Program-made: the position numbers
Shown here: positions 3,001 through 12,000 of the stretch, piece after piece
Layout: each line of letters starts with the position of its first letter
Position numbering within the stretch: position 1 is the first letter of the stretch
DNA from: Fidelibacterota bacterium
GTDB lineage: Bacteria > Fidelibacterota > Marinisomatia > Marinisomatales > S15-B10
Length of the DNA: 25,699 bases
Assembly (NCBI GenBank): GCA_046861655.1
Contig: JBHIAI010000010.1
Span: forward strand, 1-25,699
Direction of reading: 5' to 3'

Positions 3001-6000
3001 TGTGACGGGAAATCCCAGTGCATCCATGAGGCGGTTCACCGCATCCCCTCCTCCCAGCTCCCTGGTGAGCCATATGGCTGCGGCGTTGTCGCTCAAAGTC
3101 AACATAAGATGTACCAGGTCCTTCACGGTGACCTCTGTGCTGTCTTTGAAGAACTGCAGGTACCCGGCACCTGGGTACGCCAGGCTGTCCCTGTATGTCC
3201 ACCGGTCAGTGTAGGAGATTTCTCCTTTTTCCAGCAGGTTGAAAACATGGACAGCGATGGGTATCTTGATGAGACTGGCCGTGGGAAAGGTGTCTTGAGC
3301 GCTGATGGACACCGTCTCGCCCGAATTGAGGTTTCTAAGGTACAGTCCAGTAATGCCTCTGTGGCTGGCGATTTTTTCCAGAAGGGCGTTCTTGAGAGCC
3401 GAATCCTGGGAATAACAGGGGGCTGTACAGGCCAAGAGTATAACCCATGGGATGGTGAGGAAGTATTTGCGGGTTTCTTTTCTCAAATTATGAGATTTCC
3501 ACAGTCGACCCGCTTCGGCGGGACTCGTCGGCACTGTTCACCTGGTCACTTTCTCCCATCCGATCCGGGAGAGATGCCGTACGATGATCCATGCCGCCCC
3601 CGCGGCTACCGCGAGGAATGCAATACCGGTCCCGACCTCTCCCAGGATGATCTTTCCCACACCGAACAGGGAGGAGAACACAAGGACGCATCCTGCCACC
3701 CAGTCCAGGAAGAGAAGGTGATAGCCCCTGTCGCTTTCAACCTCCGGAAGCCTGTCCGAAATCGGTTTCCAGAGGCGGCCCCCGGGATGGATCCGTTTGT
3801 AGAAGGAAACCAGTGTTTTTTCATCGGTGGGAGAGGTCAACCAGGTCACCAGTATCCAGACCGCGGTGGACCAGGGCACCATGAGATACCGGGTGTCGGG
3901 GAATGGGGCGCGGGGGGGGGGGAAGAGAGGGGTGATGAAGGGGACAACGGGCCTTATGAACGGCAGAATCAGGAACGGGGCCACCATGGCCGAAATCTCG
4001 GACCAGGCGTTGATCCTCCACCAGAACCAGCGGAGTATCAGGACCAGACCGATTCCGCCGCTGAATTCGAGAATCAGGGCCCAGGCGTCACTGATGCGGT
4101 CAAGCTTAGACGTAACGACCAGGGACAGGATCATGATGGCGACGGTCGTAATCCTGGAGAACCTGACGTAGGTCTCTTCCCGGGCCTTGGACCGGTAGAA
4201 TCGTCGATAGAAATCGTTGACCACGTACGAGGTTCCCCAGTTCAACTGGGTGGAAATGGTGGACATGTACGCGGCAAAAAACGCGGCCAACAACAGTCCG
4301 AGCAATCCTGCCGGCAGATAGTCTCTCATGATCATCACGAAGCCTTCCCCCTTATCCTCAATGGGCAGGTCCGGGTATACGGTCAAAGACACCAGGGCTA
4401 CGATTATCCAGGGCCAGGGGCGGACGGCATAATGGGCAATGGTGAACCATAAAGTGGCAAGCAGGGAATGTCTTTCGTCCTTCGCGGACATGATTCGTTG
4501 GGCGACGTATCCACCGCCACCGGGTTCGGCGCCCGGGTACCAGGAGGACCACCACGGGACCCCCAGGTAGGCCACAAAGGCCAGAGCGGTCAGTGAAAGG
4601 GCACCCCCGATGGGGGACGCACGGTCCCCTACGGAAGGCGTGAACTGGAATACCCACTGGGGCAGTTTCTCCTTGAGTCCGGCGATGCCTCCCACTTCCG
4701 GGATGTTAACGGCGATAACCGCCAGGATGATGGTCCCGGTCATGGCCAGGACGAACTGCACCACATCTGTGATGGAAACTCCCCACAGGCCCGAAAGAGA
4801 GGCGTAGACGGCCACGAAAGCCATGAGGACTCCCACCCACAGGAGATGAGAACCGAGGTCAATGCCCAAGAAGGACAGCTCCTCCAGGCCGAAGAAAGTG
4901 AGACGGGGAAACATGACGGTCAAGATTTTTACCATGGCCAGGTTTACCCATCCCATGATAATGACATTCATAAACAGCCCCAGATAAAGAGCCCTGAATC
5001 CCCGCAGGAAGGCCGCCGGTCTTCCCGAATACCGGATTTCCGCAAATTCCACATCGGTCATGATCCCCGCCCGTCTCCAGAATCTCGCGAAGAAAAACAC
5101 GGTGAGCATTCCACCGAAGAGCATGTTCCACCACAGCCAGTTTCCAGCCACCCCATTCTTTGCCACCAGTTCGGTAACAGCCAGGGGCGTGTCAGCCGCG
5201 AACGTCGTTGCCACCATGGTAGTGCCGGCAACGTACCACGGCAGGTTCCTTCCGGTCAGAAAAAACTCAATCGTGCTTTTTCCCGCCCTGCGGGAGAAGA
5301 AAACGGCAATTCCCATGCTGATAGTCAGGTAGGAAAGAATGATGATCCAGTCGAGGGTGGAAAGGTTCACGCCGGGAGAGTGTTAACCAGGTGTCTCATC
5401 ATTCGGATATGATCGGGATTTGTCCCGCAGCAGCCGCCGAGTATGGCAACACCAAGATCCAGGAGTTCTTGCGCCTTGGGCTTGATGGCCTCGGGAGTTT
5501 CACGGTAAACGGATTCGCCATCCACCCATTCAGGAATGCCCGCATTGGACTGGGCGATCACGGGCAGGCTGGTCAGGGGCACCATTTCTTTCATGATGGC
5601 AATCATTTCGTCGAATCCATTCCCGCAGTTGGCCCCGATGACGTGGGCTCCGGCGTCGGTGAGTCTTCTGACGGCGGTTTCGACCGTCACTCCCCACATG
5701 GTCCGGAGCCCCGCCTTGCCCATTTCAAATGTCATGGTTGCCACCACGGGAAGCTGGGTCGATTCCCTGGCCGCCCGGACGGCGATTTCCGCCTCTTCCA
5801 CGGCCATCATGGTTTCCACGTATAAGACATCCACCCCTCCCTCCGCCAGGGCCTCCGCCTGCTCCCGGAACATGTCTTGGGCCTCTTTCAGGGGCCGGGA
5901 ACCCAGGGGTTGAAGTATATCCCCTGTAGGACCCATGGACCCCGCCACGAAGCGGCCCGGAGGGCACACCTCCCGGGCCAGCCGGGCCGATCGGGTGGAT

Positions 6001-9000: not shown

Positions 9001-12000
9001 CTTCCTTCAGATCCACCGTTCCCAGGGGTGGGGGATCGAGAGTGTCGATGCCGTCCGTTCCGGTATCCAGCATCAGGTCAAGGCGGTCACCGATACTGCC
9101 GCACGTGTGAGTGTACACCGGAACGGAATAGTCCTTCCTGATTCCTTCTATTACCTTCTTTTCGTAGGGGAGAACGAATTCGGTGTAATGGTCCCGGGAG
9201 ATGAGCCCTCCACCGGCAAAGGCGGAAGAGATGAGAACCGCGTCCACCCCGCATTCCGCCTGCCGCTTTCCCAGATCGATCGCCCCTTCAGCCAGGCGGT
9301 CAAGACAGGCCTTTGCCTTACCGGGATCATCGAGAATACCCATGAGCGCATTTTCGTAGTTGAGGAGTTCCAGGAACTGGGACCACGGTGAAAACACCTC
9401 GGAATGGACCGAGACGTCGTCCCCCACCGCTGATCTTACCCGTCTTATGGTATCAAAATGATGTTCAGGGAAAAAGCTGTCAAACGGGGGCGGTTCGGAC
9501 TCAAATCCCCAGGTGTAAGGGTACGTGATATCGGTAAGGTCCCACGGTTCCACATAGAAAAGTTCTTCCGGCTGCAAGTCCTGGAACGTGGGGAAGTACC
9601 GGGAACCGTCCGCCATGTAATAATGGGGATTATCGTCGTCCGGGAATACGGTATAGTCTCCGTTCTTCCAACGGATGATGCGTTCCCCTTCTGCCGTTTC
9701 GATTGTTTGCACATAATCCTCGTAGTTTGGATCTCGCCCGGGAAGATTCACCAGGATTCCATCGAATCGGTACCGTTCCCTCATACCCGTGAGCGCTTCG
9801 ACGAATCCGTCTGTGGTATACCATACCCTCAGAGGATCGATGCCCGAAAAGAGGAAATAGTGACCCAGGGACAGCTGGCACATGACGGGAACCCGGTCCG
9901 GCCTGTGGAGGGCCATGGCCGTTCTTATCCGCGTTCTCGAATTCATGGGCGCAAAAGGACGAATATAGGGTCCGTCCCGTAATCGCACAAGGCGTTTCCA
10001 CTATCCACGGCTGTCGGTGCTAGGGGCGGGCTTTTCCCAGTCGCACAAATGGAAGATGTCCGGGATGGTTTCCCGGCGCCGGATCACCCGGGCCTCGCCA
10101 TCCACCAGGAGTACTTCCGCTGGTCTGGGCCTGGTATTGTACTGGCTGGCCATGGAGAATCCGTATGCCCCCGAGTCCATGATGGCCACCAGGTCCCCCT
10201 CCTCAACTTCCGGGAACGGCCGGTCCTGGGCAAGCCTGTCGGTGTTTTCGCAGATCTCTCCGGTGAAATCCACCGTTTCCACGGGGGAGGCATAAGGGTC
10301 ACCCACCTTCAAGATCCGGTGGTACGTGCGGTACAGGGCCGGCCGCAGGAGAACATTCATCCCTGCATCCAGACCCACGAAGTTCTTGTAGGCGTTCTTC
10401 TTTCCCGTGACCCGGGCCCGGAGAAACCCTGCGTCTCCGATCAGGAACTTGCCCGGTTCAACGATCAGGGAGGGAATTCCGTTGTCGTCTTCGTCGTAGA
10501 ACTTGCGGAAAACGGTGGAAAGGAGGGGAAACAATTCGCCAGGTGCCAGGGGCCTGTCCTCTTCCCGGTAGGGGATACCGAACCCTCCTCCCATGCTCAC
10601 AAAGCCAAAGGGGGAAGACAGGCTCGACTCCAGCGATTTGACCACTTCCAGGATTGTGGTCAGGAGGTGAACGAAGTACTCAGGTTCGAGGATTCCGGAT
10701 CCTGTCATACACTGAAGTCCAAAACGGTGGATACCGTCTTCCGCCGCCTGCCTGTAGACGGACTCGATCTTTTCCAGAGGCACCCCGAATTTTGCGTCCC
10801 TGCCGGCCGTTACGATCCCGGGAAATTCCCCCTTTCCGAAACCGGGATTCAGACGAAAAGATATCTCTGGCGGCAGGCCAATTCTCCTCAGGCGTTCGTA
10901 GGAAGTCGCGTCGTCAAGATTCAGGTGGACTCCCGAATCGAGGGCGAGCCTGAGCTCCCGTTCGCTTTCGTAGTTCCCCGTGTAAAGACAGGACTCCGGG
11001 GGAATCCCCACCTCCTGAGCCAGATAGAGTTCCCCCGGCGATGAACAGTCCGCGCCCAGGGTGGGAACGGCCGATCTCATTTCAGCTATGAGATGGGGAT
11101 TCGTGTTGGCCTTCAGAGCATAGCAGATGGTGTAGTTCTTGAAGGATTCTGAGAGAGCCCGGTCGAGCCGGATCACGTTGTCCCTCAACCGGTTCCTGTC
11201 GTAAACGTACAGGGGAGTTGAATGAGTCTCCGCCAGGGATTCCAGAAGGTCCTTATTCATAATAAGATGGCCCAAAGGGTGGGTGAGTGCGTCTGCCATT
11301 TCTGGATTACGGAGTTCTGGGGAGAATGCCGGTCAGCGAAAGGACCGAATCATTCCCCTATGTTCGCGATCTTGCGCTCTTCGGCTGTCAAATCGAATAC
11401 GGTCCTGAATAGATTCTCATCGAGCTCGGTGAATTCAACATCCCTCCTGGCCATGACCTTCCCGGCAACTTCGAAGGCCCTGTCCATCTTGTAGGTGGTG
11501 AAAACCCCGTCCGTTGTGCCCCACGAAAAAGAAGGAACAAACTTGGGAGGCTGACCCGGCCCAAACACGTTACAGCACACGCCCACCACCGTCCCGGTGT
11601 TGAACATCTGATTGATTCCGCTCTTCGAGTGGTCCCCCATGAATAGGCCTACAAACATGGATCCCGTATCCGTCAGTTTCCCGTTGACGAAAACCTTGAC
11701 TGGACCATAGTTGTTCTTCAAGTCGCTGTTGTTTGTGCCGGCCCCGATATTTACCCAGCTTCCCAGGTATGCATGTCCGATGAATCCGTCATGCTGCTTG
11801 TTGGAATAGGAATCGATGATGGATTCTTCCACTTCTCCTCCTACTTTGCATACCTTGCCGATCGTTGTGTTTTCGTAGATCTTCGCGCCCACTTTGATCA
11901 GGCTGTCATCGCCCATGGAGACGGGACCTTCGATGACGGAATTGGGAAGGATTCTTGAGTTGTTTCCAACATAGATGGGCCCATTCTCGGCATCCAGGAC

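Follow-up and report, generated by a model that had tools for sequence, protein, structure and literature searches.

Candidate folate-free corrinoid methyl-salvage operon with a linked sodium:solute symporter in a Fidelibacterota bacterium

Introduction

A stretch of 25,699 nucleotides (the window) of contig JBHIAI010000010.1, from a Fidelibacterota bacterium, carries in one operon the genes for a URO-D-family protein, a reductive activase (RACo), a corrinoid protein, a stand-alone homocysteine-binding (Hcy) domain and a sodium:solute symporter (SSS). The initial annotation read this operon as a folate-independent, three-component methionine synthase fed by a methoxy- or methylthio-type compound, and as the missing donor module for split or ‘core’ MetH enzymes. 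The locus raises the question of which compound would give up its methyl group, and of whether the chain serves as the cell's methionine synthase or beside it.

Results

A compact operon in an amino-sugar context

All five operon reading frames were confirmed on the minus strand at the location given by the initial annotation, with their domains by Pfam, and they are tightly spaced; the intergenic distances, from the URO-D gene through the activase, corrinoid and Hcy-domain genes to the symporter gene, are 11, −8, −4 and −4 nt. The gene run extends past the symporter, as a beta-lactamase-like gene begins 3 nt beyond it. The features are:

1..2477, minus strand: TonB-dependent receptor, an 825-codon open frame running off the contig end
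2513..2541, minus strand: perfect sigma-70 consensus (TTGACA-17-TATAAT, 12/12, a consensus match only) before the receptor gene
2554..3534, minus strand: serine hydrolase resembling class-A beta-lactamases, encoded by the final gene of the run (PF13354)
3538..5370, minus strand: SSS sodium:solute symporter from a subfamily not yet characterised, which would import the methylated substrate (PF00474)
5367..6257, minus strand: stand-alone MetH-type homocysteine-binding domain, proposed acceptor-side MT2 (PF02574)
6254..6907, minus strand: corrinoid protein, cap plus B12-binding domain with DxHxxG (PF02607 and PF02310)
6900..8756, minus strand: RACo/RamA-type ATP-dependent corrinoid reductive activase with an N-terminal 2Fe-2S domain (PF00111, PF17650, PF17651, PF14574)
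8768..9946, minus strand: URO-D/MtaA-fold zinc methyltransferase, proposed donor-side MT1 (PF01208, E 2e-43)
10001..11299, minus strand: LysA, diaminopimelate decarboxylase, upstream (TIGR01048 above cut-off)
11350..13409, minus strand: NagB and alternative GlmU, upstream, amino-sugar context (TIGR00502 and TIGR03991 above cut-off)
13512..16002, plus strand: NamZ exo-beta-N-acetylmuramidase and NagX, divergent, peptidoglycan/amino-sugar context (PF07075 and PF20732; NF046061 under cut-off)

An alternative start of the URO-D gene is possible at position 9916. The beta-lactamase-like protein scores under every NCBIfam bla cut-off shown, has orthologues at the equivalent location in two relatives (69% in G194, 60% in G178) and probably processes cell-wall peptides. 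The TonB-dependent receptor matches, at 80%, a G194 protein bearing Plug and carboxypeptidase-regulatory domains, and its orthologue lies downstream of URO-D genes in many loci of the phylum; the upstream lysA is kept in G194.

A probable zinc methyltransferase with an MtaA-like fold

The URO-D protein, the single match to that domain in the whole host genome (G000; 92.8% complete, 198 contigs), has the MtaA/CmuA-type URO-D fold and its His-x-Cys...Cys zinc ligands. The triad (H280-x-C282...C367, accompanied by D304) aligns with that of MtaA (PDB 4ay7), and C23-Q24, H29 and K327 are specific to the family; among 66 close family rows, chosen by similarity, H280, C282, D304, K327 and C367 are invariant (66/66). 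The AF2 model (pLDDT 96.7) finds its best fold match in MtaA (4ay7; VIA Z 34.6, rmsd 2.4, 319 aligned) at 18–20% sequence identity, and a family profile ranks MtaA top (E 6e-39) and also matches CdmB (E 6e-21). The protein scores 107.6 against TIGR01463 (the MtaA/CmuA family), below the cut-off of 235.4. Identity as the HemE uroporphyrinogen decarboxylase was rejected (TIGR01464, 60.9 against a cut-off of 302.95).

Zinc sites of the His-Cys-Cys kind are described as characteristic of S- and Se-methyltransferases, with carboxylates replacing the cysteines in O-demethylases (PMC10418091), and by this analogy of sequence the protein would be expected to act on an S- or Se-methyl group. In the URO-D clades that adjoin xylan genes the corresponding residues are H-N-D or H-S-D, and this speaks against a simple O-methyl sugar as donor. 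A methoxy-aromatic donor, on the methoxy side of the initial proposal, is unlikely on the same grounds, since the ligand set fits the S/Se enzymes and not the aryl O-demethylases as described (PMC10418091).

The other components

The corrinoid protein has a DIHDIG motif at residue 101. One other B12-binding match was found in the host genome, the C-terminal subunit of methylmalonyl-CoA mutase; this subunit, and a cobalamin riboswitch that precedes a TonB receptor gene, make B12 use by the host plausible. The activase, which comprises Fer2 and the RACo linker, middle and C-terminal domains, is present in a single copy. In the Hcy domain the zinc cysteine trio is intact (C211, C276 and C277); its top PDB match is the Hcy domain of Thermotoga maritima MetH (E 7e-49), which outranks BHMT (4e-23) and MmuM (1e-13), and it scores 269.6 against PRK07534 (Bmt/BHMT; cut-off 338). 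All four gene types of an MT1/corrinoid protein/MT2/activase set are thus present with their motifs intact, as are three hallmarks of split MetH: a stand-alone PF02574 subunit, a cap plus B12-binding subunit and a RamA-like activase. Pfam detected no DUF1638 partner in the operon. As the genome encodes a single corrinoid protein of this kind and a single URO-D protein, and neither MttB nor a pterin methyltransferase was found in it, the URO-D protein and the Hcy domain are the corrinoid protein's sole visible partners.

Methionine synthesis is probably encoded elsewhere in the genome

The reported lack of a MetH-type pterin module was borne out. Pterin_bind matches in the host genome are confined to two contig-end pieces (profile positions 1–136 and 139–244) that, by scores and coverage, fit halves of one dihydropteroate synthase (DHPS), and a six-frame search with a 21-domain profile for MetH/AcsE-type pterin domains returned the piece on C42 alone (E 1e-6). 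MetE is present, as initially noted, as a full-length protein and the sole PF01717 match in the genome (the operon has none), and MetF is encoded on contig C29. The metE gene stands behind a SAM_alpha riboswitch in a contiguous syntenic slot that in relatives carries metH after the same riboswitch, an arrangement also found in G289, of the same genus; the operon has no SAM riboswitch of this kind. From these gene assignments, methionine synthesis in this host is probably by MetE and MetF under a SAM riboswitch, apart from the operon.

Full MetH co-occurs with the enzyme in 14 of 15 carriers within the phylum and is present in 9 of 12 carriers from other phyla (G012 excluded); G194 has the same operon plus a full MetH, with no stand-alone pterin methyltransferase. 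The distribution of MetH, together with metE in the metH slot, indicates that the chain is accessory. Of the initial reading, a folate-free relay from URO-D protein through corrinoid protein to homocysteine is supported; its roles as the cell's methionine synthase and as the missing donor module for split or core MetH are not.

Conservation of the relay and its symporter

The 13 related loci encode URO-D proteins 58–73% identical to the window's, and, in agreement with the initial survey, RACo follows the URO-D gene in five and both corrinoid protein and Hcy domain occur in three. We extended the survey to 80 URO-D-family loci from metagenomes, 39 of them shorter than 5 kb and 26 of at least 10 kb. 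An Hcy domain was found in 19, a corrinoid protein in 15, RACo in 10 and a pterin module in none; 51 of the 80 (with 39 under 5 kb) lack the first three, at least one of which occurs in 13 of the 26 longer loci. Within the phylum, no RACo was detected in 14 of the 15 carriers. Half of 20 sampled Hcy-domain loci in the phylum are MttB–corrinoid–Hcy domain operons, and one locus (L286) places an H-N-D URO-D gene and an Hcy domain within a GH115/GH43/GH10 xylan locus, so the same swap-the-donor design recurs elsewhere in the phylum.

Twelve of the 80 loci have a symporter relative (at least 40% identical) alongside the URO-D gene, against 0.14–0.28 expected; it is directly adjacent in nine of these, in four orientations. 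The linked loci are scattered among several sub-clades of the URO-D phylogeny, and the sister symporters of G178 and G179 (SH-aLRT 99) adjoin URO-D proteins that share 71% and 37% identity with the one in the window. The other 68 loci (39 of the 80 being under 5 kb) lack such a symporter, and a full match occurs in just 8 of 16 phylum genomes that have the URO-D family. Across 401 phylum genomes the symporter (41) is commoner than the enzyme (18), and must have a job without it. It often adjoins genes for AnmK, a NagZ–lactamase fusion, an amidase or NamZ; at 21 loci from genomes without this URO-D family, with part of the neighbours in 1.5-kb flanks scanned, it adjoins one of these or S66 in eight, and in 11 when C26 peptidases are counted.

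Among 122 neighbouring ORFs, a subset of all, sugar or amino-sugar genes (ROK kinases, NagB, PIG-L deacetylase, YhcH, sugar ABC components, glycosidases) neighbour the URO-D gene at 12 of 80 loci, and sulfur or selenium genes at three (raw counts, kin included): SelD in L218, a CysK-like gene in L224 and a desulfurase-like gene in L265. SelD occurs in five of five carriers and equally in five of five non-carriers. The symporter's surroundings suggest a methylated amino sugar as the substrate, and symporter and enzyme family alike may be tied to amino-sugar and peptidoglycan salvage genes.

Discussion

Proposed pathway

On balance we lean towards an accessory, folate-free B12 methyl-salvage chain whose substrate most likely belongs to the methylated sugars or amino sugars, with an O-, S- or Se-linked methyl group. 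The chain would probably pass a methyl group from an imported compound to homocysteine and so give the cell a further way to make methionine, beside de novo synthesis by MetF and MetE. The symporter would import the methylated small solute, and the His-Cys-Cys zinc enzyme would bind its methyl-bearing heteroatom and transfer the methyl group to the cob(I)amide of the corrinoid protein; MtpA, an MT2-family protein described as working as a donor-specific MT1, offers a precedent (10.1101/548461). The MetH-type domain, with its zinc and homocysteine-binding residues intact, would then move the methyl group to homocysteine. RACo would re-reduce Co(II), freeing the chain from the SAM-dependent reactivation domain of MetH, which would fit its survival after the genus exchanged metH for metE.

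Alternative readings

The same relay could draw on a non-sugar S- or Se-methyl donor, akin to methylmercaptopropionate, methanethiol, methylselenol, S-methylcysteine or D-methionine, with the amino-sugar surroundings partly incidental. This keeps the methylthio half of the initial proposal and is rather unlikely. In its favour are the His-Cys-Cys set, invariant in the family and tied to S/Se chemistry (PMC10418091), the MtaA fold, the MtpA precedent and the three loci with S/Se neighbours; K327 might, speculatively, grip a carboxylate. It sits poorly with the symporter association repeated across phyla, with sugar-type neighbours at 12 loci against three with S/Se genes, and with SelD being equally common in non-carriers. 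We regard as improbable a reversed flow, in which methionine would charge the corrinoid protein through the Hcy domain, the URO-D protein, as an MtaA-like MT2, would place the methyl group on a thiol or selenol, either in detoxification or to form a methylated metabolite, and MetE would recycle homocysteine. In its favour, each barrel has a zinc site that activates thiols, MtaA, the nearest relative of solved structure, works on the acceptor side, and in G179 and G250 MttB lies beside corrinoid protein and Hcy domain with the URO-D gene elsewhere; but G000 lacks MttB, and the neighbouring genes encode importers and enzymes of degradation. The step from methylcobalamin to homocysteine is also strongly favoured, which counts against this direction. 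So does a cost of about +20 kJ/mol given for transfer from a thioether to Co(I) (10.1101/548461).

That the Hcy domain works alone, Bmt- or BHMT-like, on betaine, DMSP or S-methylmethionine, leaving the URO-D/corrinoid pair to another acceptor, is a remote prospect. Phaeobacter inhibens Bmt is described as acting in vitro on DMSP and betaine without an intermediary (PMC12366255), and some phylum Hcy-domain genes have no corrinoid neighbours (L281, L282, L285, L288–290 and L294); here, however, stop and start codons overlap with the corrinoid gene, the nearest structure is MetH, the PRK07534 score falls short, no other acceptor enzyme was seen in the genome, and a second, more MmuM-like stand-alone PF02574 protein is encoded on C95. 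Still less likely is an aryl methyl ether O-demethylase (MtvB/OdmB/MtoB) or haloalkane methyltransferase (CdmB/CmuA) feeding homocysteine: the superfamily is shared, CdmB is matched, and the MtaA/CmuA-family MecE has been proposed to act on dichloromethane (PMC9768040), but CdmB and MtvB are described as lacking zinc (PMC13222342), no aromatic-degradation genes occur among the 122 neighbours scanned, and gases need no symporter. Least probable of all is an ordinary split MetH whose folate subunit falls in an assembly gap, with the URO-D gene as a side branch. The genome is incomplete and fragmented, and seven carriers (G001, G006, G008, G010, G013, G215 and G359) have a stand-alone pterin methyltransferase elsewhere; against this, none was found in G000, in G194 or at any of the 80 loci, and MetE fills the metH slot.

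Relation to known systems

The proposed salvage chain shares the stand-alone Hcy domain, cap plus B12-binding protein and RamA-like activase with the split MetH/MtgBCDE hub described in P. inhibens and Ruegeria pomeroyi, where a substrate-specific methyltransferase can load the common corrinoid protein, as proposed here (PMC5764234, PMC12478193). It differs in lacking the pterin subunit MtgD, in having a URO-D barrel instead of MttB as donor enzyme, in probably not being the de novo methionine synthase (MetH or MetE is also present) and in its linked importer. The URO-D fold and His-x-Cys...Cys site are common to MtpA/MtpC of Methanosarcina acetivorans and to MtaA, MtbA and MtsA (10.1101/548461; PDB 4ay7), where the final acceptor is CoM and not, as proposed here, homocysteine, and from which C23-Q24, H29 and K327 set this family apart.

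Type 1 mlp clusters, as described by Kountz and Balskus, likewise combine a His-Cys-Cys URO-D protein, a corrinoid protein and Ram/RACE without a THF methylase, and methyl salvage towards methionine was proposed for them; they have two or three URO-D genes (at least two Mlp genes define them) against one here, and selenium or MarHDK genes in place of an amino-sugar context (PMC10418091). The present operon has its own Hcy domain and, compared with those clusters, is not limited to strict anaerobes (PMC10418091); its host has heme-copper oxidase genes. Acetogen systems such as CdmBCA are likewise built of four parts and have an MT1 of the URO-D family, but there the MT2 is a THF methyltransferase and CdmB lacks the zinc triad (PMC13222342); with an Hcy domain as MT2 the output would be methionine and not energy metabolism. 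The core methionine synthases (MesA-D/core-MetE) also make methionine from methyl-corrinoid without folate (PMC7857596, PMC7005905), but MesA-D are MetE-type barrels (PMC7857596), whereas here a MetH-type PF02574 domain is accompanied by a dedicated corrinoid protein and proposed donor enzyme.

The genes around the symporter subfamily resemble, by gene context alone, those of the Tannerella forsythia MurT-MurK-MurQ/NamZ locus, in which a non-PTS MurNAc importer, described both as a sodium symporter and as an MFS protein, lies among NamZ, kinase and etherase genes; the locus as described mentions no methyltransferase (PMC5790795; 10.1101/2021.12.02.470905). What is new here is a URO-D methyl chain linked to a symporter otherwise often found among cell-wall-sugar salvage genes. 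With homocysteine as sole acceptor, flux would be on a biosynthetic scale and would not support growth on the compound; if the proposed route is correct, the chain would spare methyl-THF or release a scarce sulfur or selenium atom.

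Organization of the operon and its surroundings

The initial annotation described a five-gene operon, and its layout was confirmed: genes for a URO-D enzyme (the proposed donor-side methyltransferase, MT1), RACo, a corrinoid protein, a MetH-type homocysteine (Hcy) domain (PF02574; the proposed acceptor side, MT2) and an SSS symporter all lie on the minus strand, with spacings of 11, −8, −4 and −4 nucleotides. The window is contig C165 of the source genome, G000, whose assembly is 2.06 Mb long and 92.8% complete. A protein with 81% identity carries a Ca. Neomarinimicrobiota name, which makes the host a probable member of the Marinimicrobia.

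Features of the window
Upstream, divergent: namZ and nagX (family matches)
Before the five genes, minus: nagB, alternative glmU, lysA (family matches)
8768–9946, minus: URO-D enzyme
6900–8756, minus: RACo
Between RACo and symporter, minus: corrinoid protein, Hcy domain
3538–5370, minus: SSS symporter
After the five genes, minus: class-A beta-lactamase-like gene, then TonB-dependent receptor (family matches and relatives)
2513–2541, minus: perfect TTGACA-17-TATAAT sigma-70 consensus before the TonB receptor gene (consensus match only)

The run from lysA to the receptor gene is kept in G194, a genome of the same family, at 69–81% identity, and also in the related genome G178, but there without RACo. 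A promoter and terminator scan gave counts at chance level except for the single 12/12 promoter site, and no riboswitch on the five-gene operon reached the gathering score in the window or in the related loci L099 and L100. Elsewhere in the window, on the plus strand, are a 2OG-Fe(II) oxygenase gene (17354–18196; DIOX_N and 2OG-FeII_Oxy) and two ORFs (16016–17287 and 18344–18994) that match no Pfam or NCBIfam family.

The URO-D enzyme and its partner proteins

The predicted fold of the URO-D protein (pLDDT 96.7), searched against 48,161 chains, matched MtaA best (4ay7; Z 34.6, rmsd 2.4, 319 residues aligned), with true UroD close behind (Z 33.5); ordered by Foldseek E-value, UroD came first and MtaA third. 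What separates the protein from UroD is its zinc set, H280-x-C282...C367, which aligns with that of MtaA. None of these three residues, nor D304 or K327, varies in the 66 close family rows, across which C23, Q24 and H29 are nearly invariant. The protein scores under the cut-offs of both the MtaA/CmuA and the HemE models. Its uncharacterised family, annotated as uroporphyrinogen decarboxylase, is large: of 8,000 candidates scored, 4,934 proteins reached E 1e-30 or better, and the best 120 are 68–85% identical across phyla. The ESM Atlas returned generic SSF and URO-D names only.

The nearest match to the Hcy domain, whose three zinc cysteines are all intact, is Thermotoga MetH; the corrinoid protein carries a DxHxxG motif. 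The predicted complex of the URO-D protein with the corrinoid domain scored 0.01. Searches of G000 found no second URO-D, RACo or methyltransferase-corrinoid protein and, at 92.8% completeness, no MttB and no pterin methyltransferase. The organism handles B12, since a cobalamin riboswitch precedes a TonB receptor gene and a methylmalonyl-CoA mutase subunit is present. The window gene was the sole match to the URO-D profile in the whole genome, with no HemE seen in the assembly, yet genes for heme-copper oxidase and cytochrome c maturation are present. In one related locus (L198:7821–8999) the URO-D gene was called as two consecutive pieces, which may be due to stop-codon read-through or to an error in the sequence.

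The operon as a probable addition to de novo methionine synthesis

The operon had been read as the cell's methionine synthase, a proposal that the gene content of its carriers does not support. Among genomes carrying the window's URO-D family (carriers), a MetH-type pterin domain was found in a long ORF in 14 of 15 from the phylum, and such a domain in 9 of 12 from other phyla (a thirteenth, the unpublished G012, was left out); G000 itself has MetE and MetF, which are predicted to cover de novo methionine synthesis. G194 holds the complete operon plus a 1,251-residue MetH. In both G194 and G178, metH lies behind a SAM_alpha riboswitch (Rfam RF00521, 39–42 bits before metE or metH, in a non-alphaproteobacterial lineage), divergent from an RNase E/G gene. 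In G000, metE stands behind the same riboswitch in the metH slot, on one contig and with flanking genes as in G194.

Replacement of metH by metE
G000:C95:11910–14180 (L178:3911–6106), minus: metE in place of metH; compare L180:6670–10422 and L181:5469–9149

In this genus metH appears to be truly lost, since metE occupies its slot in G000 and the congeneric G289, in which a RACo–corrinoid–Hcy–SSS run extends to the contig end, has MetE and no MetH-length protein. Because MetH co-occurs in carriers, MetE and MetF are present and metH was seemingly swapped for metE, the operon, which has no riboswitch match, appears to be an add-on.

Of the 15 phylum carriers one yielded RACo, versus 11 of the 12 from other phyla; some loci (L008 and L009) contain a short MetH reactivation domain. 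A search of G000 for methionine gamma-lyase, considered as a possible high-flux sink, returned one PF01053 protein, which matched cystathionine gamma-synthase/lyase models best and passed none of the shown cut-offs. A second stand-alone PF02574 protein is encoded at G000:C95:32511–33407 (L179:4512–5408, minus), with a MarR gene and then a MutY-like gene behind it; it is 29% identical to the operon's Hcy domain, and its best NCBIfam match, PRK09485 (MmuM-type), is below cut-off.

A proposed conserved relay with exchangeable donor enzymes

Eighty metagenome loci of the family were chosen by the URO-D protein alone, 39 of them shorter than 5 kb. The Hcy domain was present in 19, the corrinoid protein in 15 and RACo in 10, with at least one of the three in 29 and a pterin module in none of the 80. 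The relay appears, from these neighbourhoods, to be conserved.

Stand-alone Hcy domains occur in 102 of 401 phylum genomes (E 1e-60, MTHFR fusions included). Twenty such loci were sampled: ten contained MttB–corrinoid–Hcy operons, three a URO-D clade marked by the residue set H-S-D before the window's receptor family (one also with MttB), and one an H-N-D URO-D protein with GH115, GH43 and GH10. Because MttB, H-S-D or H-N-D URO-D proteins accompany it in different loci, the corrinoid and Hcy pair resembles a hub whose donor enzymes can be exchanged. GH115 releases 4-O-methylglucuronate, and the xylan case suggests that such modules may deal with methyl groups of whatever substrate their host locus serves. 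Near xylan genes the URO-D clades carry carboxylate ligands, not His-Cys-Cys, and the H-N-D clade is a candidate O-methyl-sugar demethylase.

The MttB–(reactivation domain)–corrinoid–Hcy operon is kept in many phylum genomes (MttB 68–74% identical); in two of them amino-acid permeases lie further downstream. The H-N-D clade and an Hcy domain lie within two xylan loci (GH115, GH43, GH10), L286:6987–15413 and L117:1675–15790, the latter also holding MTHFR, a pterin methyltransferase, RACo and an FGGY kinase. The H-S-D clade, about 21% identical to the window protein, takes the same position before a TonB receptor.

Loci with other donor enzymes
MttB operons: L185:6340–9369, L276, L277–L280, L283, L284, L287, L292, L293
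H-S-D URO-D genes, with AmiA-like amidase, Hcy domain and corrinoid genes: L182:7648–8655, L275:8376–9395, L276:5693–6700, L291:5821–6843

The symporter and its cell-wall-sugar context

Of the 80 metagenome loci, 12 (two of them near duplicates) hold a symporter that shares at least 40% identity with that of the window, against 0.14–0.28 expected assuming one symporter copy per genome. It directly adjoins the URO-D gene in nine of these, in four orientations, and a quick tree spreads the 12 over several URO-D sub-clades. Across the 401 phylum genomes, the symporter occurs in 41 and a URO-D match in 18. In 21 symporter loci from genomes without the window's URO-D family, some of which have the H-S-D clade elsewhere, the symporter adjoins AnmK, a NagZ-lactamase fusion, an AmiA-like amidase, NamZ or an S66 carboxypeptidase in eight and a C26 peptidase in three more. 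A URO-D clade at 35–45% identity occurs in NagZ/amidase/URO-D/SSS/receptor loci, and sister symporters of G178 and of another relative, G179, adjoin URO-D proteins of two distant clades (the window family and the 35–45% clade). A homologue search with a distant symporter returned only automatic names.

Sugar-type neighbours (ROK kinases, NagB, a PIG-L deacetylase with a sugar ABC transporter, YhcH, glycosidases) were present in 12 of the 80 metagenome loci and SelD, CysK-like or desulfurase-like neighbours in three; both figures are raw counts from a survey of 122 neighbour ORFs. The clearest N-acetyl-sugar context for the family is a compact operon (L262:330–6981) encoding a ROK kinase, a sugar ABC binding protein, two permeases, a URO-D protein (53%) and a PIG-L de-N-acetylase. 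According to PMC5790795, T. forsythia imports MurNAc via MurT, which that paper assigns to the sodium symporters in one place and to the MFS in another.

Proposed mechanism and substrate

From the genes and residues observed we infer the following as the most likely course: the symporter would import a methylated substrate, the URO-D enzyme would move its methyl group to Co(I), the Hcy domain would pass it on to homocysteine, and RACo would reactivate the corrinoid. The study 10.1101/548461 describes MtpA as an MT2-family protein able to act as a specific MT1, with a forward step of about +20 kJ/mol; homocysteine methylation could pull such an unfavourable step.

It is possible, though we consider it rather unlikely, that the URO-D enzyme uses B12 to demethylate a methylated N-acetylhexosamine imported by a cell-wall-sugar symporter, and would be the first enzyme of that kind. 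That compound could be 3-O-methyl-GlcNAc, an O-methyl ether resembling MurNAc, or a selenosugar-type S- or Se-methyl amino sugar. Gene context points to an amino sugar, and the His-Cys-Cys set is in tension with this, being described for S and Se substrates (PMC10418091). Context and zinc ligands alike would fit an S- or Se-methyl amino sugar.

Two other readings were set aside. B12-dependent cleavage of the MurNAc lactyl ether, in replacement of MurQ, was dropped because MurQ and AnmK are already in G000 (MurQ was over cut-off there and in 36 of 44 genomes searched). Bacillithiol of the cell's own, as thiol partner, would call on BshC, which passed its cut-off in 2 of 401 phylum genomes, G000 not among them. 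On a selenium link SelD was uninformative, since its gene was found in all ten genomes checked, carriers and non-carriers alike (G000:C13:13712–14635 included), in each with one in-frame TGA that is probably selenocysteine.

Comparison with known systems

Judged by its genes, the five-gene system would work like MT1/corrinoid/MT2/activase systems and like the MtgBCDE hub. It differs from split MetH in having no pterin subunit, from type 1 mlp clusters in having one URO-D gene, from MesA–D in its MetH-type barrel and from the MtaA/CmuA model by score. The mlp clusters belong to strict anaerobes, whereas the G000 host has heme-copper oxidase genes, which were found in 4 of 5 carriers. Searches of a mostly open-access literature yielded no description of a URO-D, corrinoid and Hcy-domain operon or of a corrinoid sugar demethylase; the supplements of PMC10418091 and PMC13222342 list many URO-D homologues, which could include the window's family. 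New from this locus are a transporter link backed by counts, the setting among cell-wall-sugar genes and the swap of metH for metE in place.

Implications

The swap indicates that, given RACo, the hub can outlast the loss of MetH, a caution against taking operons of this kind for split MetH. With the symporter link, the search for the substrate comes down to a short panel of compounds that can be tested. If the proposed relay is correct, non-methylotrophic heterotrophs would recover methyl groups from the organic matter they scavenge and pass them directly to methionine, through a modular B12 hub (corrinoid protein and Hcy domain) with MttB or three URO-D clades as exchangeable donors. Were the substrate a methylated N-acetylhexosamine, necromass and cell-wall scavenging would be linked with the supply of methionine, and perhaps of selenium, in Marinimicrobia, KSB1, Ignavibacteria, Calditrichota, Acidobacteria and their relatives.
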